Below are positions 31,856 through 49,869 of a stretch of DNA of 64,000 bases, piece after piece. Under the pieces are notes generated by a model. That model did no database searches. It saw nothing but the letters and a program-made list of their open reading frames with translations, and had not been told where the DNA came from. Position 1 is the first letter of the stretch, and every line of letters begins with the position of its first letter. Location: the NCBI GenBank assembly GCA_963701295.1, contig OY969585.1, positions 192,001 to 256,000 of the forward strand. Direction: 5' to 3'. Both the position numbers and the translations under genes were made by a program. The stretch comes from Ignavibacteriota bacterium (GTDB lineage: Bacteria; Bacteroidota; Ignavibacteria; UBA10030).

Positions 31856-32065
31856 CCGCGGATAAAAGAAGAGTATATCATTCCCGCGATCGCGGGAATC
31901 TAATGGACATTATTCCCTTGCGTTTTAGTGATGCAATTGATAGATTACGAGCGCGCATAAAAAAGATACAGCGGCGAAGTATTTGAAGAAAGTGGGGAAT
32001 TATTGGGAGCTGTTGGAACAACGTACAACTATAGTGCCAGAACCCGTTTCATTATCACCAAATTT

Positions 32066-32178
32066 GGCTGCAGACCTAGCAGTCTCTCAAATAATTTATT
32101 CATGTCAGGCTGCAATATGCAGTCTAACACTCAAAAAAGCGTATTAGGCTGCGGTATGCAGTCTAATCAGAGTTATGC
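32066..32178 (+). other. attI-like integron recombination site
   Basis: GTTATGC core at 32172 complements GCATAAC at the end of cassette 1; preceded by GTCTAATCAGA and three ggctgc..gcagtct palindromes rather than an attC. Confidence 0.7.
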
Positions 32179-32374
32179 CGCACGGGCGGCGAACAAATAA
32201 AAAATGCATATACATTTGTAAAAGCGTTTTGTGGCACAAGAAAAAACATTTGCTGAAAAAGAATCATAGAAAGTTATCTTCCAAATAGTCTGTGATAGTC
32301 CTGAGAATGCCTATGAATACCTTTAATAGAAAACCACCAACAACTATCGCCAATACAATTTCAAAGAAAGATAA

Positions 32375-32839
32375 ATGATGGTCACTGGCATCCTTGGCTT
32401 TTTCATTCGTTTGTGGTTTAATATTTTGTATAGCTTGAATAAAGCCAAAGGGCAAGAGGCAAGAACTGCATATCTGAAGTTTAGAGAAACATTCACCCCC
32501 TTCGTTCGCCACTTGGAATCGAATGATGTTAATCTTAATAATCTCATTGCGGATACATTTTGTGAACATGATGATGCCAGACGTAATTTTATTTGGTGTG
32601 TCAAGGGATCTGGCAGAGAGAGATTCAATGCCAAATGGAAAAAGTACAAGGAACAATACGACCAAGTGGTTCAACTTGAGGAGTTGCGTAAAGCAAGAGA
32701 CCTTTCGCCTTTTAACAACGAGAAATTTGCAACGCACAAGCAAATGTACGATGATCTGTGGGAAAGACAAGATGAGAGAAGAACAAATTTGCTTAGAATT
32801 ATAAATGAATTGTTTGATGTCGCAGAAATCAAACTTTAA
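32375..32839 (+). CDS. Cassette 1 hypothetical protein (N-terminal TM, helical)
   Basis: 154-aa ORF enclosed by nested inverted repeats inside cassette 1. Confidence 0.6.
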   Translation: MMVTGILGFFIRLWFNILYSLNKAKGQEARTAYLKFRETFTPFVRHLESNDVNLNNLIADTFCEHDDARRNFIWCVKGSGRERFNAKWKKYKEQYDQVVQLEELRKARDLSPFNNEKFATHKQMYDDLWERQDERRTNLLRIINELFDVAEIKL

Positions 32840-33024
32840 TTCGTGATTATTCCAATTATCAAAAGAATTTAAAAACTGTGCCGCAAAACGCAAAACAATA
32901 GAATGTGCAAAAGAATAAATAACGGCTTTTATTTTCGCCGCCCGTGCAACAAGCAATGAGCACTTAATTAATTTTAAAGTTCTGTGAATTACTATTACCA
33001 TTTGAGCACCTTGAAAGTTATTTG

Positions 33025-33183
33025 GCATAACCAGCAACTCAAGCTGACGGTTGGAGCAAGGCGATAAATTCATGGCGCTAAACACACGTTATTTTTATGG
33101 CGCGGCAATAGACGTGTGGCTTGTTTCGTTGATTGCATGGCTTATAACTTTCAACACCGCAGCTTAGTTGCCGTCCGTTAGGT
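33025..33183 (+). repeat. attC 1 (159 bp)
   Basis: gcataac-cagcaactcaagctg...cagcttagttgc..gttaggt. Confidence 0.92.
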
Positions 33184-33189
33184 TGCGTT

Positions 33190-33537
33190 TTGAAACAATT
33201 AGTTCTGACCACCAAATATTTAGGTGATTTTGTGGAAAAAGACAAATCAATTTATACAGTTGTTATTACTGAAGAAGCTGCAAAACTATTCAAAGATCAT
33301 GGATTTGACCTATTGCTTAATCACAGTACTAAAGGGTTCTCTTCATTCAAATGCACCACAATAGATCAACAAGGTCCATATTTGAAAATGCAAGTATTCA
33401 TTGAAAAGGCAGATGTAGTTGTCGATTTCCAGATACCTCATCATTACGTTCTTTACATTTATGGAGAGCGAGATAAAAAGATCGGTTTTTTGATTCAACA
33501 GATTGAAACTGATAAAAAGCCAATCTCTTCGCATTAG
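33190..33537 (+). CDS. Cassette 2 hypothetical protein
   Basis: 115-aa ORF just after the core site; start uncertain. Confidence 0.6.
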   Translation: MKQLVLTTKYLGDFVEKDKSIYTVVITEEAAKLFKDHGFDLLLNHSTKGFSSFKCTTIDQQGPYLKMQVFIEKADVVVDFQIPHHYVLYIYGERDKKIGFLIQQIETDKKPISSH

Positions 33538-33558
33538 CACTAGGGAACATTTCTCAAT

Positions 33559-34014
33559 ATGACTATTCGTGGTTGGATTTATATAATAACAAATAAGGCT
33601 ATGCCGGGATTATTGAAAATCGGGTATTCCACTAAAGACCCTGAATTAAGAGCCGCAGAATTAGCAAATACTGGTTCACCTCATCGATATGTCGTAGAAT
33701 ATGATGCACTTGTCAATGAGCCACGTTCAGTTGAACAAAAAATACATAGAGCTCTTGCCGACAAAAATGAAGGAAAAGAATGGTTCCGTTGTGAAGTAGT
33801 TGAAGCAATATTGGAGATTCATAGATTAATCGAAAAGAGTATCATTTTAGAAAAAATTAATAGGCAGCTTTCATTCAATTGTTCAATAAATGATTGTGGT
33901 GAGAAATCCAGTACCAAGGATGATGAAGACGGTCGGTTTTATTGTTCAAGACATTACGTGGAATTATTAAAACAAAGAATTATCACTGCGTATGTTAAAA
34001 ATCATAAAAAATAA
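33559..34014 (+). CDS. GIY-YIG (T5orf172-like) nuclease-domain protein
   Basis: GWIYIITNKAMPGLLKIGYSTKDPELRA.EL..TG.P; EQKIH; EWF; C-terminal Cys/His cluster. Confidence 0.85.
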   Translation: MTIRGWIYIITNKAMPGLLKIGYSTKDPELRAAELANTGSPHRYVVEYDALVNEPRSVEQKIHRALADKNEGKEWFRCEVVEAILEIHRLIEKSIILEKINRQLSFNCSINDCGEKSSTKDDEDGRFYCSRHYVELLKQRIITAYVKNHKK

Positions 34015-34053
34015 TCGCGCTTCTATTTATTTGGCAAAACGCAACCTAACCAG

Positions 34054-35434
34054 TTTAAAAAGGAAAGAGTCAAGTAAATAATATACTCCCGATGCGTTCC
34101 GCGCAATCGGAATGCAGAGTTCTTTAACATTAAGGACGACCGAATCCGTGCCGATGCCGCGTTCTCTATCGAATAGACAGGCGATTACCAGAGCAATGCC
34201 GTCCAAACCAGTTTACGGATTTACATTCACTCATTGAAGAAACGATGGTGAAAGCGTATCTCGTCGAGCGAGATGTTCCAGATATTACCACGGCACAGCG
34301 CACTCTCTTCCCAATCCAGCGAACGATCCCGACGCAGTCGGGATCAGTTAGGAAAGCGGGCTTGAGAGGCGCGGCCACTGCTGAGATTTATGCCGGCTGA
34401 TCGGCTGACCTTTGAGACCTTTATATATTGTTTTGTTTTTTAAGACATAGTAAACAATCTTCGCAAGTTCTTTGGCAACGACGGTTCGCGCAGTCGCCTC
34501 ATTGGAGCGACGAGCTAATTTCTGGAATAAGCGTTTGTATTCCGGATAGTACTGAATAGCATGAACAGCGGCATCGGAGAAGGCGATTTTGAGATACTTA
34601 TTGCCGTCTTTGCTGGAGCGATGGTGCACAGAGCGATTGGAGTTATCGGCAGCAGGGACGAGTCGGCAGTAAGAGACAAACTTTTTATCGGAGTCGAATC
34701 GTTCAATGCCGTCGATTTCAAGATACACCGTGAATGCGGTGAGCTTGCCGATACCTGGAATGTGCAAGAGCCGTTGAATATCGTCGTTGGGAATCAGCAC
34801 AGGATGGAGAGATTTTTCCAGCGAGAGGATCTGAGCAGTAAAAGTGTCTCTGGTATGTTGCAAGACAGCAAGTTGAAAACGATACGGATCCGGAACAGAG
34901 CCGTTAAATTTGGTCTGAATACTGTAGAGACGCAGAAGACTGGCAGTTCGTTGCTGAACGAGCCGTAGACGAATACGCATGGTATCGCGCAGGCCGCGTA
35001 GTTCTCGGCTGATTTTGTGAGCCCGTGGAATGAGTCCCTGTCGTAAGAGAAGAGCAAGAGTTTGCGAATCGACTTTATCTGTTTTAACTTTAGCATAACT
35101 GATGGCTTTGAGATATTTGGCGTGAGCAAGGACAAGCTCGATGCCGTGATCGCTGAGAAGATCGTTGAGCCAGTACCATCCTGTGGTAGACTCAACGACT
35201 GCGTGATGAGGACCGGGCAGAGAGTGGAAGTAATCAAGAACACGTTCATTGTTATTCTCGACACGTTGTCGCTTGATGACAGCACCAGTGTCATCAACAG
35301 TGGTGATAAAACAATTATCAGAATGCAAATCGATACCTGAGTAATACATGGGAATCTCCTTAGATTGTGGATGTTGGTGACCTAGAGAATTATCAATGTA
35401 CATAATCGGGAGATTCCTTTTTGGTAATATCCAG
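34054..35434 (-). mobile_element. IS110-family (IS1111-type) element in attC, copy 1 (1381 bp)
   Basis: CCAG at both junctions, sub-terminal IR AAAAAGGAA/TTCCTTTTT, long non-coding region 3' of tnp, no TSD beyond the core. Confidence 0.92.
34348..35349 (-). CDS. IS110-family DEDD transposase/recombinase
   Basis: YSGIDLH, VVESTTGWYW, KTDKVDS, IPGIG; ATG at 35349 with AGGAGA RBS. Confidence 0.93.
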   Translation of the reverse strand: MYYSGIDLHSDNCFITTVDDTGAVIKRQRVENNNERVLDYFHSLPGPHHAVVESTTGWYWLNDLLSDHGIELVLAHAKYLKAISYAKVKTDKVDSQTLALLLRQGLIPRAHKISRELRGLRDTMRIRLRLVQQRTASLLRLYSIQTKFNGSVPDPYRFQLAVLQHTRDTFTAQILSLEKSLHPVLIPNDDIQRLLHIPGIGKLTAFTVYLEIDGIERFDSDKKFVSYCRLVPAADNSNRSVHHRSSKDGNKYLKIAFSDAAVHAIQYYPEYKRLFQKLARRSNEATARTVVAKELAKIVYYVLKNKTIYKGLKGQPISRHKSQQWPRLSSPLS

Positions 35435-35619
35435 CAACTCAAGCTGACGGTTTGGGCGTTGGAGCAATCAACATGGCTAATATAGGTCTTGTGCTTAATA
35501 TTTCACTTGATAGCGTGAACTCGTTTCGTTGGTTGCATTACGAAACTTTTCAACGCCGCAGCTTAGTTGCGGTCCGTTAGGTTGCGCCTTCAATGGTTAA
35601 TTGAAAGGAATTATCCACC

Positions 35620-36285
35620 ATGAAATCCAGATTCATATCCATCCTGTTTTTCATTTATTTGTTTTTGTGCTCTTTAAGTGCCCAGAGTATTTATACTCCG
35701 GAATTAAAAGCTACGATCGATGGAATAGGCTGGAAAGGTAAGTTCACAGCAGCAGAGCTTGCAAAAACAGATTCTTCAGATGCAATTATGATAACAAAAA
35801 CTGATGGTGACGAAATCATCTGGCTCGATAATGTTACATTTACAAACGGCACTATCGAGTTTGACGCAAAAGGCAAAAGCGGTCCGCCGCAAAGTATTTT
35901 TGTTGGTGTTGCTTTCCGTGTCGTTGATCAAACTACTTATGATGCGATCTATTTTCGGCCGTTTAATTTCCTCTCTCCTAATCCCGTTAATAAAGCTCAT
36001 GCTGTCCAATATATGTCTCATCCCGATTGGACATGGAAAAGATTACGCGACGAGCACACTGGAGAATATGAAAAAGGAATCGATCCTGCTCCTAATGGCG
36101 ATGAATGGTTCCACGCAAAGATTGTAGTTCAAAAGCCTGAGATAAAAGTTTATGTAAACAGTGCGAACGATCCAAGCCTTGTAGTAAACGAATTATCCGA
36201 TAGAAAAGATGGTTCAGTCGGTCTTTGGTGTAATGGATTTGGTATAATCGCAAATCTAAAAATTGGACAACTAATCAAAAAATAG
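35620..36285 (+). CDS. Cassette 3 secreted DUF1080/LamG-like protein
   Basis: Signal peptide; FTNGTIEFD.KG, FVGVAFR, YFRPFNF, WFHAKIVV, GSVGLW. Confidence 0.7.
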   Translation: MKSRFISILFFIYLFLCSLSAQSIYTPELKATIDGIGWKGKFTAAELAKTDSSDAIMITKTDGDEIIWLDNVTFTNGTIEFDAKGKSGPPQSIFVGVAFRVVDQTTYDAIYFRPFNFLSPNPVNKAHAVQYMSHPDWTWKRLRDEHTGEYEKGIDPAPNGDEWFHAKIVVQKPEIKVYVNSANDPSLVVNELSDRKDGSVGLWCNGFGIIANLKIGQLIKK

Positions 36286-36303
36286 TGTATAAACCGAGGC
36301 GCA

Positions 36304-36461
36304 ACCTAACCAGGCGCTCAAGCCGACGGAATGAGCGTGCTACAAAATTCATGGCGAGTATAGGTTTAGATGCTTAATAATTTATTTATCAGCGTGAACT
36401 TGGTTCGTTATCAGCAATTAGAAAATATTCAGCGCCGCAGCTTAGCGCCGGTCCGTTAGGC
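36304..36461 (+). repeat. attC 3 (158 bp)
   Basis: acctaac-caggcgctcaagc...gcttagcgcc..gttaggc. Confidence 0.92.
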
Positions 36462-36485
36462 GGCAGTCAATAAAGGAGATAAAAT

Positions 36486-36893
36486 ATGAAACCAGTACCT
36501 TGGACTGAACGATTTTCCGTCGGTGTAAAAGAAATCGATCTTCAGCATCGCGGTTTGCTGGATATTGTAAATCAAGTTATCGATTCTATTGAAAAGGAGA
36601 AGGAATGGCAAACAACTTCTGCCGTTCTTGACTCTCTTATCAATTATGCCTATAACCATTTCGCAACCGAAGAACGATATATGAAGGAAGCTGAATATCC
36701 GGAATTGTTGTGGCATGTTGGGTTGCATCTTGAGTTTATAAAAAAGGTGTTTTCATTGTCTCAAGAAGTATCGCTGAAAGGACTGGAAATACAACGAGAG
36801 ATGCTCACGTTTTTAATAGAATGGTACACTAACCATGTTCTTGGAGTTGATAGGAAATATATGGCAAGTCTTTCTGCGAAAGGATTCAAATAG
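36486..36893 (+). CDS. Cassette 4 bacteriohemerythrin
   Basis: W...SVGV.EID.QH, HFATEE..M, H...H, W..NHV..VD..Y. Confidence 0.92.
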   Translation: MKPVPWTERFSVGVKEIDLQHRGLLDIVNQVIDSIEKEKEWQTTSAVLDSLINYAYNHFATEERYMKEAEYPELLWHVGLHLEFIKKVFSLSQEVSLKGLEIQREMLTFLIEWYTNHVLGVDRKYMASLSAKGFK

Positions 36894-36906
36894 ATTTAGA
36901 ACTGCC

Positions 36907-37103
36907 GCCTAACCATGCGCTCAAGCTGACCGATTGAGCGTAGGAGCAATTTGCATGGCTAATGGTGGGTTGGTATTTTTAATATTAACATTTCAGTACC
37001 TCGTTGGTTGATTGCAGGTTAATATGGTTATCAGCGCAAACTCGTTTCGTTTTGTGTATTTTGAAAATTATCAGTGCGGCAGCTTAGCACCCATCCGTTA
37101 GGC
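36907..37103 (+). repeat. attC 4 (197 bp)
   Basis: gcctaac...gttaggc with L boxes. Confidence 0.9.
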
Positions 37104-37119
37104 AGCTTTATTAATTATT

Positions 37120-38164
37120 ATGGAAGACAAACTAGTTCCATTCAATACTTTTCTTACCAATAAGGGAAGTTTTAATATTCCTCAGAAGAGAAAGAATCTT
37201 CTGTACTTTTCAGGTACAAAAACCAAAAAATGTCGGCTTTTCGGTTGGAATATCCTTGTCGTTTAATATCAGTTTAGATGATAATCCATTTACCGAGGAT
37301 AATCTTCGTGTGGAGGTCGAAAAACTCAAAGAAGAAAATATTTCCAACGATGACATATTAAAAAAGATAAAAGAGAAAATCAGAATTGATCTTGACTGTG
37401 GCAGAACTCGATCTGAAGAACCAAGCATTATTTATCTGTTACTTCCCATAATTAGACCTGCCAATATCGAAGGAGTGGATCGTCCAAATTACTATCCTTG
37501 TTATGCTCAGTTATTCCCAGAACAAAGATGGATATATCTGAATTGGCTACAAGACATTTCTAAACCTATTCCCAAGGGATATGTCTATATTTATTTTTAT
37601 GGTTTGGAACGACGAGTGTTACAAGAAGCAAATGCGGATGCCATTGATGAACTCTTATTTCTATCAGAATGTCATAACTTTATCAAAAGAGAGGCATACT
37701 CCGCTATATTGTTTGCATATTTTCGTAGCGGTAATGAGGAAATACTGAAAAAGTTATTCGAAAAAAATCTGGATTATCCTATAGACAATCTCATTTTAAT
37801 ACTTTTATACTCACTTAAAAGACCTCTCACCAGCAAACATATATTTGAATTAATCAGCCAAAGTGGTCAAATAAATAAAAGATATATAAATCTTCACCCA
37901 CAATTGTACCTCGAAGAATTAGATAAATATTTACTGAGAGTTTACAAGGAGCCTATCTATCCGTTTTACCAGTTATTCACAATTGATGAATTCCCGTTAG
38001 ACAAAATGAAAATATTTCTGAATTATTCTTTACCGGATGAAATCAGAGAAGTCGAAATATACAATATTGCTAATTATCAGAAATTCAAAAATGAAATGAT
38101 AAGTATTCACAAAACTATTCATGAAGAAATAAAAACCAGACTGAGAAAGAATAAATCGAAATAA
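37120..38164 (+). pseudogene. Cassette 5 TerB-N-domain protein, probably frameshifted near the 5' end
   Basis: YYPCY..L.PEQR..YL.WL, GYVYIYFYGLERR; ATG 37120 frame goes out of register at the A-runs ~37218-37230. Confidence 0.7.
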
Positions 38165-38168
38165 AGCT

Positions 38169-38364
38169 GCCTAACCAAGCACTCAAGCTGACCGGATGAG
38201 CGTGGGTGCTTTACGCATGGCTGATGGTGGGTTTAAGTTTTTATTATTAAGTTCTTTGTACTTCATAACATTTGTGAAATTAAATTCGTTATCAGCATGA
38301 ACTTGTTTCGTTTTCAGCAACTTGAAAGTATTCAGTGCGGCAGCTTAGTGCCCGTCCGTTATGT
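38169..38364 (+). repeat. attC 5 (196 bp)
   Basis: gcctaac-caagcactcaagc...gcttagtgc..gttatgt. Confidence 0.9.
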
Positions 38365-38647
38365 TGCACAGGCAGCGCACACAGTATGTGTTACTTGCGG
38401 GGTTGGGTAATCGCGTTCTAACGGCTTTAAGTTTTAGTTACATTGTACAGATTTAGATTTTGGTTGCTTTCTATAAGTTACGTTGTCAACAAGTTTTGTT
38501 TTGTACGAGAATAAAAGCAGTGCAAGTTAAGTTCCTCAAAAGAATCTCGGCGATGCGCTGCCTGTGCTCAGAATAATTCAAGTTTTGATGGTGGTAGCAA
38601 GTATTGTTTTGCAGAAAGTTTGTACAACAAAGAAACTATAACATAAC
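38358..38647 (+). other. Gene-less cassette 6
   Basis: No ORF >=60 aa; 14-bp IR 38366-38379/38554-38567. Confidence 0.85.
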
Positions 38648-38798
38648 CAGCAACTCAAGCTGACGGTTGGAGCTCGGTACAAAATTCATGGCGAGAAACA
38701 CACGTTATTTTTATGGCGCAAAATAGACGTGTGGCATGTTTGGTTGATTGCATGACTCGTAATTATCAACGCCGCAGCTTAGTTGCCAATCGTTATGT
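38641..38798 (+). repeat. attC 6 (158 bp)
   Basis: acataac...gttatgt. Confidence 0.92.
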
Positions 38799-39081
38799 TG
38801 CACAGGCAGCGCACACAGTATGTGTTACTTGCGGGGTTGGGTAATCGCGTTCTAACGGCTTTAAGTTTTAGTTACATTGTACAGATTTAGATTTTGGTTG
38901 CTTTCTATAAGTTACGTTGTCAACAAGTTTTGTTTTGTACGAGAATAAAAGCAGTGCAAGTTAAGTTCCTCAAAAGAATCTCGGCGATGCGCTGCCTGTG
39001 CTCAGAATAATTAAAGTTTTTTTGGTGTTAGCAAGTATTGTTTTGTTGAAAGTTTGTACAACAAAGAAACTATAACATAAC
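38792..39081 (+). other. Gene-less cassette 7 (near copy of cassette 6)
   Basis: 434-bp offset duplicate; IR 38800-38813/38988-39001. Confidence 0.85.
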
Positions 39082-39234
39082 CAGCAACTCAAGCTGACGG
39101 TTGGAACGTGGGATTTAAATTCATGGCGCTAAACACACGTTATTATTATGGCGCGAATATAGACGTGTGGCTTGGTTCGTTGATTGCATGACTCGTAATT
39201 ATCAACGCCGCAGCTTAGTTGCCATCCGTTAGGC
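39075..39234 (+). repeat. attC 7 (160 bp)
   Basis: acataac...gttaggc. Confidence 0.92.
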
Positions 39235-39257
39235 GGCATTAAATTAAGGAGGAATTT

Positions 39258-39869
39258 ATGAAACATATTTCTATCACTTTTTTATTTACAATATTATTAT
39301 TTCTAGACGGATGCGATAAAAGTAATCCAGTCGAAGTTAATCATTCACCTCAAAGTATTATCCCTCTTGTTGTTGGAAATACATGGAATTTCTCTGGAAC
39401 TTCATATGACACATTGGGTTCGGTCAATGAAATATTTGGAGAACTTTATAAAGTTAGTGGTGATACAGTTATATTTGGTAGAAAACTTACAGTATATGCT
39501 GGTCAATGCTGTGCCAATACCGATAGCGGTCTTATTGCATATTCTGGATATGGTGTTTCTTCTTTATCTCCGAACGATACAATTGTTTCTTATAGGCTAG
39601 TATACAAATATCCAACATATACCGGTGACAGATTTAACTATGATATAAGAGTGGGTAATGTTGATACAATTATAAATGTACCGGCTGGTTCATTCCATTG
39701 TATAAAATACCAGAATTATGATCCTATTTCAGGTATTCTTTATGGCGACACTTATATATCGCCTGGATTTGGTCCAGTAAAATATGTCTCATATTATGGA
39801 AGCTATTGCCAGCATAATCCATCACAATTAGAAGGAATTTCTAATCTCAATACTTACACACTTAAATAA
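39258..39869 (+). CDS. Cassette 8 lipoprotein (beta-rich, VPAG.F.C motif)
   Basis: Lipobox LDGC; PLVVGNTW.F; INVPAGSFHCIKY; PGFGPVKY. Confidence 0.8.
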   Translation: MKHISITFLFTILLFLDGCDKSNPVEVNHSPQSIIPLVVGNTWNFSGTSYDTLGSVNEIFGELYKVSGDTVIFGRKLTVYAGQCCANTDSGLIAYSGYGVSSLSPNDTIVSYRLVYKYPTYTGDRFNYDIRVGNVDTIINVPAGSFHCIKYQNYDPISGILYGDTYISPGFGPVKYVSYYGSYCQHNPSQLEGISNLNTYTLK

Positions 39870-39887
39870 AAAAATAATTACAATGCC

Positions 39888-40046
39888 GCCTAACCAGCAA
39901 CTCAAGCTGACGGTATAAGCGTGAGTACGTTAAGCATGGCGCGTAGAGGTTCAGATGTTTAATAATAAACTATTCAGCATGAACTTGTTTCGTTTTCAGC
40001 AACTTGCGGGTTATCGTTGCCGCAGCTTAGTTGCCATCCGTTAGGC
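39888..40046 (+). repeat. attC 8 (159 bp)
   Basis: gcctaac...gttaggc. Confidence 0.92.
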
Positions 40047-40252
40047 CGCGCGTGCGGTGCTCAGGTTTAGTAATTATGTTTTTAAAAAAGTTTTGTTGTT
40101 ACGAGTGTTTGAGTGCTATCTGCGTCGTGCCATTAAAATTAAGTATTCGTTTGCACCACACGCGCAAGTATCTATTTCGTTGAGTACATTTTGAGAATAT
40201 CGGTCGTTGTCTTTCGACCAATGGTGATTCAATGAAAGTCTGTTGGCCTAAC
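40040..40252 (+). other. Gene-less cassette 9
   Basis: No ORF; IR 40048-40060/40153-40165 (12/13). Confidence 0.85.
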
Positions 40253-40398
40253 CAAGCAACTCAAGCTGACAGAATGAGCGTTGGTACGTTAAGCATGGCG
40301 CTTAGAGGTTATTGTTTAAAAGATTTTATAATAAACTTATTTTGTATTCAGCAACTTGCGGCATATCAGCGCTGCAGCTTAGTTGCCGTCCGTTAGGT
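40246..40398 (+). repeat. attC 9 (153 bp)
   Basis: gcctaac...gttaggt. Confidence 0.92.
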
Positions 40399-40423
40399 GG
40401 CATTTGAACCAAAAGGAGATTCT

Positions 40424-41245
40424 ATGAATAAACATATATTTATTGCAATGTTTTTGCTATTCAATGCGATAGCTTTTTCACAACCAAACAATGATGTTAT
40501 AAATAGTCCCTTGTCTGCTGTTGCCCCTTTTGGAAATGGAGCGCTTAGTATTACCGTCAAGGATTTTCTCGAATCCTTAACCAATGCAAATAATACAATT
40601 CAATGGGAACAAGGAGATAATGCTTCTGAATGGATATTGAGAACATCAAGAGAAGATAAACTCACAAATACAGTAAACCATATATCATGGGCATTTCGTG
40701 TTTTCTCAGATACAAAAACCGGAAACACAAATACTCTTTTATATCGCATATTAATCGCTGGCAAAGAATTTAATAGAAATGAAGTGTGGGCTGTGGCCCA
40801 GAGGATTGCCCTTGAAGCCGGAGCAAAGCGAGAGAAAGAAAGAGAAATGGCAGAGGAAGAGAAGCTTAAACTTGAAAAAGAGGAACAAGAAAACACTGCC
40901 TTTTACATTTCTGGCACAGCAGATGAATTGGAAAAGGCCGGAATAATACGAAAAGAACAAGATGAAAATATATTGGGTATGTTTGCAGGTTCTTCTTGGA
41001 AACCGACATACTCCTATAGGGACTTTCCTAGTTTTAATGGTTCCGGAGGCTATAAAACATTCACAAGAATTGACATCAGAAAAAATGATCTCATTCCTTT
41101 TCCAAAGAACTTCAAAATAGTCTCAAACCATCGTGAAGAATTGTTGAAAAAAGAGAAAGAGCAAAATGATTCGCTCTATTTCAAGATAGAAAATCCCTTA
41201 AAGTTTTGGAATCTGTCTAAATTCTTAATTGTGATTGAAAAATAA
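40424..41245 (+). CDS. Cassette 10 gene A, secreted coiled-coil protein
   Basis: AAGGAG RBS, signal peptide, NTAFYI.GT..EL...GII, I.NP..FW..SKFL.V. Confidence 0.75.
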   Translation: MNKHIFIAMFLLFNAIAFSQPNNDVINSPLSAVAPFGNGALSITVKDFLESLTNANNTIQWEQGDNASEWILRTSREDKLTNTVNHISWAFRVFSDTKTGNTNTLLYRILIAGKEFNRNEVWAVAQRIALEAGAKREKEREMAEEEKLKLEKEEQENTAFYISGTADELEKAGIIRKEQDENILGMFAGSSWKPTYSYRDFPSFNGSGGYKTFTRIDIRKNDLIPFPKNFKIVSNHREELLKKEKEQNDSLYFKIENPLKFWNLSKFLIVIEK

Positions 41246-42627: not shown

Positions 42628-44008
42628 TTTAAAAAGGAAAGAGTCAAGTAAATAATATACTCCCGATGCGTTCCGCGCAATCGGAATGCAGAGTTCTTTA
42701 ACATTAAGGACGACCGAATCCGTGCCGATGCCGCGTTCTCTATCGAATAGACAGGCGATTACCAGAGCAATGCCGTCCAAACCAGTTTACGGATTTACAT
42801 TCACTCATTGAAGAAACGATGGTGAAAGCGTATCTCGTCGAGCGAGATGTTCCAGATATTACCACGGCACAGCGCACTCTCTTCCCAATCCAGCGAACGA
42901 TCCCGACGCAGTCGGGATCAGTTAGGAAAGCGGGCTTGAGAGGCGCGGCCACTGCTGAGATTTATGCCGGCTGATCGGCTGACCTTTGAGACCTTTATAT
43001 ATTGTTTTGTTTTTTAAGACATAGTAAACAATCTTCGCAAGTTCTTTGGCAACGACGGTTCGCGCAGTCGCCTCATTGGAGCGACGAGCTAATTTCTGGA
43101 ATAAGCGTTTGTATTCCGGATAGTACTGAATAGCATGAACAGCGGCATCGGAGAAGGCGATTTTGAGATACTTATTGCCGTCTTTGCTGGAGCGATGGTG
43201 CACAGAGCGATTGGAGTTATCGGCAGCAGGGACGAGTCGGCAGTAAGAGACAAACTTTTTATCGGAGTCGAATCGTTCAATGCCGTCGATTTCAAGATAC
43301 ACCGTGAATGCGGTGAGCTTGCCGATACCTGGAATGTGCAAGAGCCGTTGAATATCGTCGTTGGGAATCAGCACAGGATGGAGAGATTTTTCCAGCGAGA
43401 GGATCTGAGCAGTAAAAGTGTCTCTGGTATGTTGCAAGACAGCAAGTTGAAAACGATACGGATCCGGAACAGAGCCGTTAAATTTGGTCTGAATACTGTA
43501 GAGACGCAGAAGACTGGCAGTTCGTTGCTGAACGAGCCGTAGACGAATACGCATGGTATCGCGCAGGCCGCGTAGTTCTCGGCTGATTTTGTGAGCCCGT
43601 GGAATGAGTCCCTGTCGTAAGAGAAGAGCAAGAGTTTGCGAATCGACTTTATCTGTTTTAACTTTAGCATAACTGATGGCTTTGAGATATTTGGCGTGAG
43701 CAAGGACAAGCTCGATGCCGTGATCGCTGAGAAGATCGTTGAGCCAGTACCATCCTGTGGTAGACTCAACGACTGCGTGATGAGGACCGGGCAGAGAGTG
43801 GAAGTAATCAAGAACACGTTCATTGTTATTCTCGACACGTTGTCGCTTGATGACAGCACCAGTGTCATCAACAGTGGTGATAAAACAATTATCAGAATGC
43901 AAATCGATACCTGAGTAATACATGGGAATCTCCTTAGATTGTGGATGTTGGTGACCTAGAGAATTATCAATGTACATAATCGGGAGATTCCTTTTTGGTA
44001 ATATCCAG
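42628..44008 (-). mobile_element. IS110-family (IS1111-type) element in attC, copy 2
   Basis: Appears identical to 34054-35434; same insertion nucleotide and orientation. Confidence 0.92.
42922..43923 (-). CDS. IS110-family DEDD transposase/recombinase
   Basis: Same protein as 34348-35349. Confidence 0.93.
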   Translation of the reverse strand: MYYSGIDLHSDNCFITTVDDTGAVIKRQRVENNNERVLDYFHSLPGPHHAVVESTTGWYWLNDLLSDHGIELVLAHAKYLKAISYAKVKTDKVDSQTLALLLRQGLIPRAHKISRELRGLRDTMRIRLRLVQQRTASLLRLYSIQTKFNGSVPDPYRFQLAVLQHTRDTFTAQILSLEKSLHPVLIPNDDIQRLLHIPGIGKLTAFTVYLEIDGIERFDSDKKFVSYCRLVPAADNSNRSVHHRSSKDGNKYLKIAFSDAAVHAIQYYPEYKRLFQKLARRSNEATARTVVAKELAKIVYYVLKNKTIYKGLKGQPISRHKSQQWPRLSSPLS

Positions 44009-44172
44009 CGGCTCAAGCTGACCGGATGAGCGTTGGTGCGTTAAGCATGGCGAGCATAGGTTTCGGTTCTTAATAATAAACTTTTCAGCGTGAACTTGTT
44101 TCGTTTGGTACATTTTGAAAGTATTCAGCGCGGCAGCTTAGCCGCCATCCGTTAGCCCGCAAGAAAGGATCA

Positions 44173-49734: not shown

Positions 49735-49869
49735 CACACGAATTACTTATGGCATAACAATACAATTTATAGAAAAGTTAAAAATAGTGGAGACCAGATC
49801 CCACTTTAAAAAACGGGGCGACATTAAAGAGCCAAATGATTAGGGAAATCAATAAGAAGGGAAATAACA

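Follow-up and report, generated by a model that had tools for sequence, protein, structure and literature searches.

Cassettes 1, 6, 7 and 9 of the integron array described here are built to a common plan that stands in exact register with the crossover point, covaries, recurs in many copies, moves with the whole cassette, and surrounds variable cargo. In each of the four cassettes, the R' and R'' boxes pair over exactly 8 bp and are followed by a GC-rich helix of 13 to 14 bp, the clamp, while an unstructured AT-rich tail of 72 to 79 nt separates the clamp from R''. We tentatively favor reading this chassis as an element that prolongs the attC stem and acts in cis as DNA, carried by a cassette lineage that is successful and partly selfish, and we infer that the pairing acts in DNA and promotes recombination.

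The window, which is the whole 64-kb stretch of DNA analyzed, holds an array of 21 co-oriented attC sites that includes these four cassettes. Each cassette body extends from the G|TT crossover of a GTTRRRY-type core, with the variant GTTATGY in cassettes 1, 6, and 7, to its own attC (R''...R'). There is no integrase within the 64-kb window, and the sole intI of the genome is found at genome 3566721-3567662 (453 bits, cut-off 265). At the head of the array, window positions 31909-32182 share 81% identity across 276 nt with genome 3566705-3566433, directly beside this intI, and the genome contains seven such attI-like sites in total. Cassettes 1, 6, 7, and 9 are integron gene cassettes by their boundaries, the co-oriented attC array, and the intI in the genome, and cassette 1 is the attI-proximal cassette that the sequence-only reading took it to be. 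The features of the array head and the four cassettes are:

31909..32171, + strand: attI-like region at the array head, by identity to the attI region beside the sole intI
32107-32127 and 32146-32166: two direct repeats AGGCTGCRRTATGCAGTCTAA in the attI-like region, then TCAGA and the crossover G at 32172
32172..32179, + strand: R' box of cassette 1, GTTATGCC, partner of the R'' box at 33024-33031
32180..32193, + strand: cassette 1 outer 5' clamp arm GCACGGGCGGCGAA
32205..32212, + strand: cassette 1 middle 5' arm GCATATAC, pairs with 32901-32908
32224..32239, + strand: cassette 1 inner 5' arm GCGTTTTGTGGCACAA
32375..32839, + strand: cassette 1 cargo gene, 154 aa
32876..32891, + strand: cassette 1 inner 3' arm CTGTGCCGCAAAACGC
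32901..32908, + strand: cassette 1 middle 3' arm GAATGTGC
32934..32947, + strand: cassette 1 outer 3' clamp arm TTCGCCGCCCGTGC
32948..33023, + strand: 76-nt AT-rich tail of cassette 1, with high conservation among members of type G
33024..33184, + strand: cassette 1 attC (R'' 33024-33031, R' 33177-33184)
38358..38647, + strand: cassette 6 body, type A, gene-less (R' 38358-38365, R'' 38640-38647), with 5' arm 38366-38379, loop 38380-38553, 3' arm 38554-38567, and tail 38568-38639
38640..38799, + strand: cassette 6 attC
38792..39081, + strand: cassette 7 body, type A, gene-less (R' 38792-38799, R'' 39074-39081), with 5' arm 38800-38813, 3' arm 38988-39001, and tail 39002-39073
39074..39235, + strand: cassette 7 attC
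40040..40252, + strand: cassette 9 body, type D, gene-less (R' 40040-40047, R'' 40245-40252), with 5' arm 40048-40060, 3' arm 40153-40165, and tail 40166-40244
40245..40399, + strand: cassette 9 attC

The 5' arms of the four clamps all begin 8 nt after the core G, and the distances from the end of the 3' arm to the end of R'' are 84, 80, 80, and 87 nt in cassettes 1, 6, 7, and 9, respectively, which bears out the shared architecture first noticed in the sequence. The clamps of cassettes 1 (32180-32193 / 32934-32947), 6 (38366-38379 / 38554-38567), and 7 (38800-38813 / 38988-39001) are perfect 14-bp helices. The 13-bp clamp of cassette 9 (40048-40060 / 40153-40165) has one C.A mismatch, which is private to the copy in the window, with the copies at genome 1799387 and 3167438 being perfect. 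The least constrained scan covered 77 cassette intervals, and all stem cassettes in it shared an arm offset of 8 and a tail between 73 and 80 nt long; the later family scans required offset 8, and the members that they returned all fit the register. Compensatory change maintains the clamp, and its pairing is beyond chance. Across 30 distinct members 97.1% of cells are paired overall and the covariation score is 0.411, compared with 0.184 in shuffles, none of 500 of which reached the observed value, and at most 0.105 in slid controls. Within the clamp, 7 of 14 pairs have changed on both sides and 95.4% of cells are paired, and in the R-box helix all cells are paired (100%). Cassettes 1 and 6 differ at three points in their arms, and these differences are likewise compensated, as had been proposed.

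Further members of the family are readily found. This genome has 14 copies among approximately 100 cassettes, 13 of them gene-less, and members also occur in 8 of 16 genomes of the genus (positive by pattern), in one further genus where they were verified, and on 11 metagenome contigs, with the other matches among 277 genomes of the order at control level. The 290-nt body of cassette 7 is identical at genome 230792, 2478694, and 2485959, in two arrays and with different neighbors, and from these copies the stem cassettes evidently move as whole cassettes, R boxes included. The attC subtype common to cassettes 1, 6, and 7, which had been called private to them, is real but does not define the family: elsewhere it follows other cassette types, and A-type cassettes in other genomes precede different attC interiors. 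Orthologous cassette bodies with different attC interiors were also found, and both clamp and tail lie outside R''...R'. By this comparison, the clamp and tail descend with the cassette body, whereas the attC interior is swapped, and they are not part of the canonical attC. Such separate histories of body and attC interior are not predicted by the textbook model of one cassette with one attC.

Cassettes 6, 7, and 9 belong to gene-less subfamilies, A to F, that have their own conserved inserts and could be non-coding cassettes, selfish or accessory, that owe their persistence and multiplication to the chassis. In types A, B, and C, mean pairwise identity is 67% in the loops and 75% in the tails, with blocks near 100%, and the loops are conserved across species as apparently non-coding families, with no reading frame conserved across 15 members. 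An inner helix, CGAGA/TCTCG, is kept across these three types. Consensus folding gave almost no conserved structure inside loops or tails; the tails have no conserved fold, and their length is nonetheless kept across subfamilies. One of the options in the sequence-only reading was that these three cassettes are empty copies of a vector that in cassette 1 has captured a gene. However, all 19 A/B/C 3' arms in 16 genomes (one cut by a contig end) have their partner arm ~200 to 220 nt away, no gene-filled versions of the gene-less subfamilies were found, and the shell of the subfamily to which cassette 1 belongs, subfamily G, was not seen empty in 13 complete and 6 partial members. Because the one kind was never found filled and the other never found empty, the four cassettes are not empty and filled states of one vector.

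In subfamily G, genes are carried inside the same chassis with two more nested helices, and cassette 1 accordingly has a middle and an inner helix within its clamp. The inner stem of cassette 1 (32224-32239 / 32876-32891), which had been noted as a second stem enclosing the 154-aa gene, is real: it contains one T.G and is kept in 12 of 13 relatives compared, while the 14th, L099, has a different, self-complementary inner stem. The 154-aa protein belongs to no Pfam or PADLOC family and has two homologs, with 78% and 55% identity, the latter housed in an ordinary cassette without clamp or tail. Around 13 cargos, the 5' shell (~78 nt) and the 3' shell with tail (~165 nt) are highly conserved. The cargo genes of two of these members (L103 and L107) are on the opposite strand with the orientation of the shell to attC unchanged, which ties the shell to the cassette and not to the cargo mRNA. 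A stem cassette is the first cassette at two of the seven attI-like sites in the genome, and 4 of 12 G-type members are preceded by attI-like sequence instead of attC, although these are few cases and the contigs were chosen by the search itself.

In the excised circular or single-stranded cassette, the 3' arm, tail, attC, and 5' arm are contiguous, and the clamp is therefore an outward extension of the attC stem. The chassis of this one lineage consists of the 8-bp R'/R'' pairing, the clamp stacked on it, and the tail bulging on the R'' side. In integrase-mediated recombination, the clamp could hold the cassette ends, and hence the flanking attC hairpins, together. It may represent an exaggerated form of the end complementarity of 13 to 16 bp in ordinary cassettes of this genome, where perfect complementarity of the ends reaches 13 nt or more in 31 of 77 intervals and never goes beyond 16. 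In a tail-less variant, for which tailed orthologs exist, the clamp adjoins R'' directly, giving an unbroken stem of 21 bp. The proposal that the chassis works as DNA is based on this variant and this end complementarity, together with the offset-8 register, the covariation of the clamp, the shell orientation that is independent of cargo, movement as whole cassettes, the position next to attI, arms that are not dispersed, and tails that are foldless but constant in length. Several observations speak against it. In a DNA partition-function model the clamp brings no gain in attC folding, with R-box pair probabilities of 0.81-0.99 for attC alone and 0.91-0.98 with clamp and tail, and shuffling one arm noticeably lowers the probability only at the outermost pair. 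Nor does the bottom strand, the one that recombines, stand out by its wobble bias, with 8 top-strand G.T cells versus 3 A.C in the G-type inner stems and 2 versus 5 in the outer stems. As RNA, the top strand folds far more stably than the bottom strand (for cassette 6, -72.7 versus -59.6 kcal/mol), the conserved blocks in A/B/C loops and tails would be needless in a pure spacer, uncompensated clamp mismatches occur in 5 of 11 relatives of one comparison set, and the attI enrichment involves small numbers.

Some of these observations would fit an element that works as RNA, in which the sense transcript of the array would fold through its arms into a stalk that processes or stabilizes each cassette RNA, releasing a stable ~200-nt RNA from gene-less members and an insulated mRNA from G-type members. 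The flanking stems of rRNA precursors, which serve RNase III, provide a model. The greater stability of the sense folds, loops that are poor in C (10-14%), and the excess of top-strand G.T in the G-type inner stem point in this direction, as do the CGAGA/TCTCG helix of types A, B, and C and one G.T position with full compensation in L109, as is usual when RNA helices evolve. We nevertheless consider an RNA-level role unlikely, as a stalk in RNA leaves the exact 8-nt register with the R boxes unexplained, the shell orientation follows the cassette even where the cargo genes are reversed, and the outer clamp has no top-strand wobble bias. Furthermore, the consensus folds of loops and tails are nearly structureless, and positions 32100-40450 gave no Rfam match at gathering score or at E up to 1. 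The window as a whole has a single Rfam match at gathering score, a DUF805 RNA at 49782-49850.

The idea of a vector that captures open reading frames holds up only for subfamily G, and fails for cassettes 6, 7, and 9. The 13 G-type cargos have no blastn similarity to each other, except that L098, L103, and L107 have 84 to 146 nt of cargo 3' end in common. They include three different restriction-modification systems, each enclosed by an additional nested inverted-repeat layer, and the cargo unit of cassette 1 recurs in the plain cassette of another lineage noted above, with homology ending just inside the frame. There is some chance, albeit a small one, that the G-type shell of three nested stems, tail, and R boxes is a natural gene-loading frame, with unrelated genes placed repeatedly at the hairpin apex between the same two junctions and attC interiors exchanged separately. 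It is somewhat less likely still that capture accounts for the chassis, with loading at fixed junctions into the apex recording cassette genesis or attC-independent exchange of cargo. Besides the missing empty shells, a further point against capture is that the G-type shell has no associated recombinase, transposase, or reverse transcriptase. Some apparently different cargos have leaders and trailers in common, and their proteins are weakly similar (27-32% over 44-90 aa), so that they may be fast-diverging homologs. A TTAAAAGA repeat flanks the cargo on both sides, and was rejected as a target duplication because its 5' copy is fixed and its 3' copy varies independently.

Gene-less members could instead supply sense or antisense promoters to neighbors far from Pc, with the AT-rich tail active upstream of attC. 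Gene-less cassettes of Vibrio superintegrons offer a precedent, as described by Blanco et al (2024; PMC11014356), and the tails here are AT-rich, unstructured, and conserved in length, with conserved sequence blocks in both loops and tails. The best-conserved loop block of type A contains a sigma-70-like TTGTCA-18-GAGAAT (9/12). However, promoter-like sites in the region number 27 against a mean of 24.9 in shuffles, and no TAnnTTTG-type motif is conserved, with scattered matches in 9 of 29 members at no common position. A promoter role also leaves the covarying clamp and its register unexplained and is at odds with the tail-less member, making it improbable.

The (near-)perfect inverted repeats around a short non-coding segment, in many copies with co-changing arms, recall a small non-autonomous element of the MITE or REPIN type whose terminal repeats are the GC arms, but we rejected this very unlikely origin: the arms occur only inside cassettes and at one fixed position (of 25 arm matches in the genome, 22 belong to the family and 3 are singletons, against 4 hits in the control), tail profiles match nothing outside the family, no target duplications were found, including any that vary with the site, and copies travel with their R boxes. 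Equally remote is decay, in which the short cassettes without open reading frames would be pseudogene remnants, like the truncated genes in some gene-less Vibrio cassettes described in PMC11014356, or deletion derivatives of cassette 1, since no frame is conserved across the 15 A/B/C members, the clamp covaries, and the loops, which form their own conserved families, do not align with the shell or gene of cassette 1.

The clamped cassettes are a variant of the non-coding cassette families. Non-coding cassettes are common in chromosomal integrons and poorly explained, and canonical attC sites are R''-L''...L'-R' hairpins recognized as folded single strands. Like the ordinary cassettes of this genome, which also prolong the R-box helix, to 13-16 bp, the clamp prolongs the R''/R' helix outward, contiguous with attC in the circular cassette. 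Unlike canonical attC, it lies outside the site, has a one-sided bulge of 72-80 nt, and is inherited with the cassette body. If the clamp does raise mobility, it would exemplify selfish optimization inside integrons. The clamp-and-tail structure covaries and is in exact register with the crossover, and excision and integration assays could follow its disruption and repair. In subfamily G, one frame around many unrelated genes makes frame/cargo junctions visible at single-base resolution. Should the frame prove to load genes, it would bear on cassette origin, with arrays preserving visible junctions of gene packaging; de novo cassette formation is termed "largely unknown" in a passage of PMC5371416. 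For Vibrio chromosomal integrons, Boucher et al (2006; PMC1382264) described paralogous non-coding cassettes and proposed that they are selfish elements or have an integron-specific function. As described there, those cassettes resemble the present family in lacking open reading frames, having many paralogs per genome, and having close homologs only in related species. By the same description, the present family, which is from a different phylum (Ignavibacteriota-like), is set apart by its covarying long-range clamp in R-box register, constant-length tail, and gene-carrying sister subfamily. The Vibrionaceae superintegron cassettes for which promoter activity was measured (Blanco et al, 2024; PMC11014356) are, as that report presents them, similarly gene-less, inside large arrays, and able to act on neighbors, whereas the present family has no conserved promoter consensus and is defined by its structure.

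In the ordinary cassettes of this genome, the two ends of a cassette pair contiguously through the R box, with perfect end complementarity of at least 13 nt in 31 of 77 cassette intervals and a maximum of 16 nt. In cassettes 1, 6, 7, and 9 of the window array R' and R'' pair over exactly 8 bp, a GC-rich arm of 13-14 bp starts immediately on its 5' side, and 72-79 nt lie between the partner arm and R''. We refer to the helix formed by these arms as the clamp and to the AT-rich stretch between its 3' arm and R'' as the tail. The arms described in the sequence-only reading were all recovered at their coordinates, and its cassette numbering, its inner stem in cassette 1, and its compensated arm differences between cassettes 1 and 6 proved correct. 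The attC subtype common to cassettes 1, 6, and 7 is also present, and is "private" only as a trait of recent copies.

Pairing was counted on an alignment of 30 distinct family members. In the 8-bp R-box helix every cell (100%) is paired and three pairs are altered on both sides; in the 14-bp clamp 95.4% of cells are paired and seven pairs are altered on both sides. The both-sided clamp changes occur at seven or more positions and in several subfamilies. The covariation score of 0.411, which like the other covariation statistics is inflated by the relatedness of the members, compares with 0.184 for shuffles (0 of 500 reach 0.411), and slid registers do not exceed 0.105. Unpaired clamp cells concentrate at positions 6-8, often as T.C, and 5 of 11 relatives from one search have a single uncompensated clamp mismatch.

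The feature is real, selected, and widespread within the genus. The family extends well beyond the four cassettes noticed originally: a genome scan found 14 members in the source genome, BLAST and pattern searches found 7 of 15 other genomes of the genus positive by pattern, and the type represented by cassette 1 occurs on 11 metagenome contigs. Outside the genus, matches in the order (277 genomes) were at the level of the reversed-pattern control. The one exception, two cassettes in tandem in a second genus of the same family, was confirmed by reading.

Subfamilies of the clamp-and-tail cassettes, with their representatives in the window
A/B/C: cassettes 6 and 7; loop 130-207 nt; gene-less
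D: cassette 9; loop 94-140 nt; gene-less
E: none in the window; loop 86-87 nt; gene-less
F: none in the window; loop 111-207 nt; gene-less
X: none in the window; loop 108 nt; gene-less
H (the other genus): none in the window; loops 35 and 90 nt; gene-less
G: cassette 1; loop 629-4050 nt; carries genes

Among non-coding integron cassettes these represent a new structural variant, whose sister subfamily, unexpectedly, carries genes. Full-text searches on gene-less or non-coding integron cassettes and on cassette genesis gave no description of the clamp-and-tail frame, which is not proof of its absence in print, and for Ignavibacteria the literature found mentions only the presence of integron cassettes. 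One Vibrio study describes paralogous non-coding cassettes confined to related species and considers that they might be selfish (PMC1382264). Stem cassettes often occur in tandem (genome positions 2478234-2479130 and 3166195-3167438; contigs G005:C83, G092:C72, and G009:C5 of other genomes), and where tandem neighbors have arm sequences in common, the arms could pair across the intervening attC.

A small-ORF check found no conserved reading frame across 15 A/B/C members, and Rfam gave no match for the cassettes at the gathering score or at E values up to 1. By consensus folding, no structure was supported apart from the terminal helices and an inner helix of 5 bp. In pairwise comparisons within A/B/C, the arms are on average 89-94% identical, the tail 75%, and the loop 67%, and short blocks are nearly invariant. 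All subfamilies have AT-rich tails, 72-80 nt long, with a short ATTAAAGTT-like motif in common; no tail consensus fold emerged for A/B/C or F, and D yielded one 5-bp hairpin. In a type E member from another genome the tail is precisely absent, which produces a continuous 21-bp stem, and its orthologues carry a 72-nt tail. This natural variant shows a tail-less cassette to be viable. Identical gene-less copies lie in different arrays with different neighbors, and arms and tails have no occurrence elsewhere in the genome beyond the family. Dispersal as REP or MITE sequences was rejected because the arms are not found elsewhere in the genome, and the tail was rejected as an independent element because tail profiles match only family members there, at E below 1e-6. 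Derivation of the tail from attC was set aside as unproven: with the attC profile only the tails of type D gave a match, a weak one (E 0.009-0.033, target of 5.9 kb), and those of A and G were not significant.

Subfamily G comprises 13 complete and 6 partial members with a conserved frame. Of the complete ones, one is cassette 1 of the window, six come from four further genomes of the genus, and the other six lie on metagenome contigs. The frame consists of a 5' shell of ~78 nt and a 3' shell plus tail of ~165 nt, which form nested helices of 13 bp (outer), 6 bp (middle), and 16 bp (inner). In the alignment the frame is nearly invariant and the interior wholly different: blastn among the 13 cargos found nothing in common except 84-146 nt of the cargo 3' end in three of them, and blastp found only weak similarity (27-32% over 44-90 residues). 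Three different restriction-modification systems are among the annotated cargos, and the rest are unknown membrane proteins or lipoproteins.

Restriction-modification cargos of subfamily G
Type II methylase with an MvaI/BcnI-type endonuclease
Type I-like specificity subunit and methylase pair
Type IIG enzyme with its own specificity subunit

These three systems (loci L098, L103, and L107) lie within a further nested imperfect inverted repeat, CACGGCAAG... / ...CTTGCCGTG, which forms a fourth layer of end pairing inside the G shell. Cargo genes are reversed in two G members and the shell orientation is unchanged. At locus L104 (G001:C50), two cargo genes of a G-type cassette are separated by a shortened and degenerate 5' half of an attC, so that at least some G-type cargos have the look of fused former cassettes. 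The protein of cassette 1 has a 78% homologue encoded on an ENA contig and a 55% homologue in another Ignavibacteriota lineage. The latter is encoded in an ordinary cassette that lacks both clamp and tail, and the DNA homology of that cassette to cassette 1 starts and stops just inside the frame. The cassette 1 gene occurs in none of 85 other genomes of the bacterial family, and the G 3'-shell pattern had no matches in viral contigs. In this subfamily TTAAAAGA was rejected as a target-site duplication, because its two copies vary independently, and "self-locking" pairing of the end of the cassette 1 tail with its own attC was not taken as a family trait, because attC interiors differ among G members.

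The proposal of an empty and a filled form of one vector was only partly right, and cassettes 6, 7, and 9 are not empty copies of the frame of cassette 1, because no empty G shell was found among the 13 complete and 6 partial members and because all 19 of the A/B/C 3' arms have their partner within about 220 nt (16 genomes; one cut by a contig end). Beyond the R boxes, cassettes 1, 6, 7, and 9 have nothing in common except the outer clamp and the tail.

Excision is reported to depend on attC folding, orientation, and sometimes cassette length, in a text that calls de novo cassette formation 'largely unknown' (PMC5371416). We tentatively propose, at somewhat less than an even chance, that the clamp acts in cis: it would hold the cassette ends and the neighboring attC hairpins together, with the tail as a flexible linker, and gene-less members would count as selfish or accessory cassettes. 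This commitment, and our preference for a role in DNA recombination over one in RNA, stem from the exact register of the clamp with the crossover, the way it prolongs the attC stem once the cassette is circular, the weaker use of the same principle in ordinary cassettes, and the fixed orientation of the shell whatever the orientation of the cargo. Against a clamp role, a DNA partition-function model gives no gain in R-box pairing, the wobble bias is mixed, and loops and tails contain conserved blocks, which points to a sequence-specific function. The clearly stronger folds of sense-strand RNA also count against it and favor an RNA stalk, which we nevertheless consider unlikely given the four observations that point to DNA. 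That the G shell serves to load genes also seems unlikely: its nearly invariant frame and varied interiors speak for this reading, the failure to find an empty form against it. Some Vibrio gene-less cassettes are reported to carry promoters (PMC11014356), but a promoter function for those described here is likewise unlikely, as sigma-70-like matches are at shuffle level and TAnnTTTG, present in 9 of 29 members, is never at a common position.

The attC interiors are exchanged: orthologous family members carry very different ones downstream, 127-253 nt long and with different L boxes. For an ordinary hemerythrin cassette, two genomes show 88% identity through the body and the first ~40 nt of the attC, after which similarity is lost until a short 35-nt match at the attC 3' end. 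Because attC interiors differ among orthologous bodies, the hemerythrin cassette included, the unit of inheritance is the body from R' to R'', and the attC interior and the cassette body have separate histories, which is not what the standard crossover at R' would by itself lead one to expect. Orthologous bodies with different attC interiors, both ordinary and stem-type, are seen on comparison of window 36455-37103 with L052:1096-1800, a relative's locus, and among stem-type loci.

The source genome is complete (3.64 Mb) and contains at least 97 attC sites in about 16 clusters. The window array has 21 co-oriented attC sites of 150-200 nt each, from 32172 to ~53950, and Pfam identified no integrase among 29 ORFs in and around it. 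The sole integron integrase of the genome (TIGR02249, 453 bits against a cut-off of 265) is at 3566721-3567662. Window positions 31909-32182 match the sequence abutting this intI gene with 81% identity over 276 nt, and this attI-like stretch has two direct repeats, then TCAGA, then the crossover G. Cassette 1 is therefore attI-proximal, as proposed from sequence alone, in an array whose own integrase was lost or never present. Genome-wide there are seven attI-like sites against one integron integrase gene; each site consists of two direct repeats and TCAGA or TCATT before the crossover G, and each heads a cassette array. The arrays do not look like plain CALINs but like an integron platform that has been split or duplicated. 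Cumulative GC skew over the whole genome indicates an origin at about 0.96 Mb and a terminus at about 2.70 Mb; the clusters, bar exceptions, have the attC bottom strand on the leading-strand template, and a lone attC at 454 kb is oriented differently. An IS110-family transposase gene is present in two copies on the minus strand of the window, at 34348-35442 (with domains DEDD_Tnp_IS110 and Transposase_20) and 42922-44016. Both copies are inserted within attC sites directly past R'', an insertion point that we take to be similar to that of attC-targeting IS1111-type elements. One cassette in the window array contains a DUF805 RNA motif (RF03081) at 49782-49850 on the plus strand, scoring 67.4 bits against a gathering score of 51.1.
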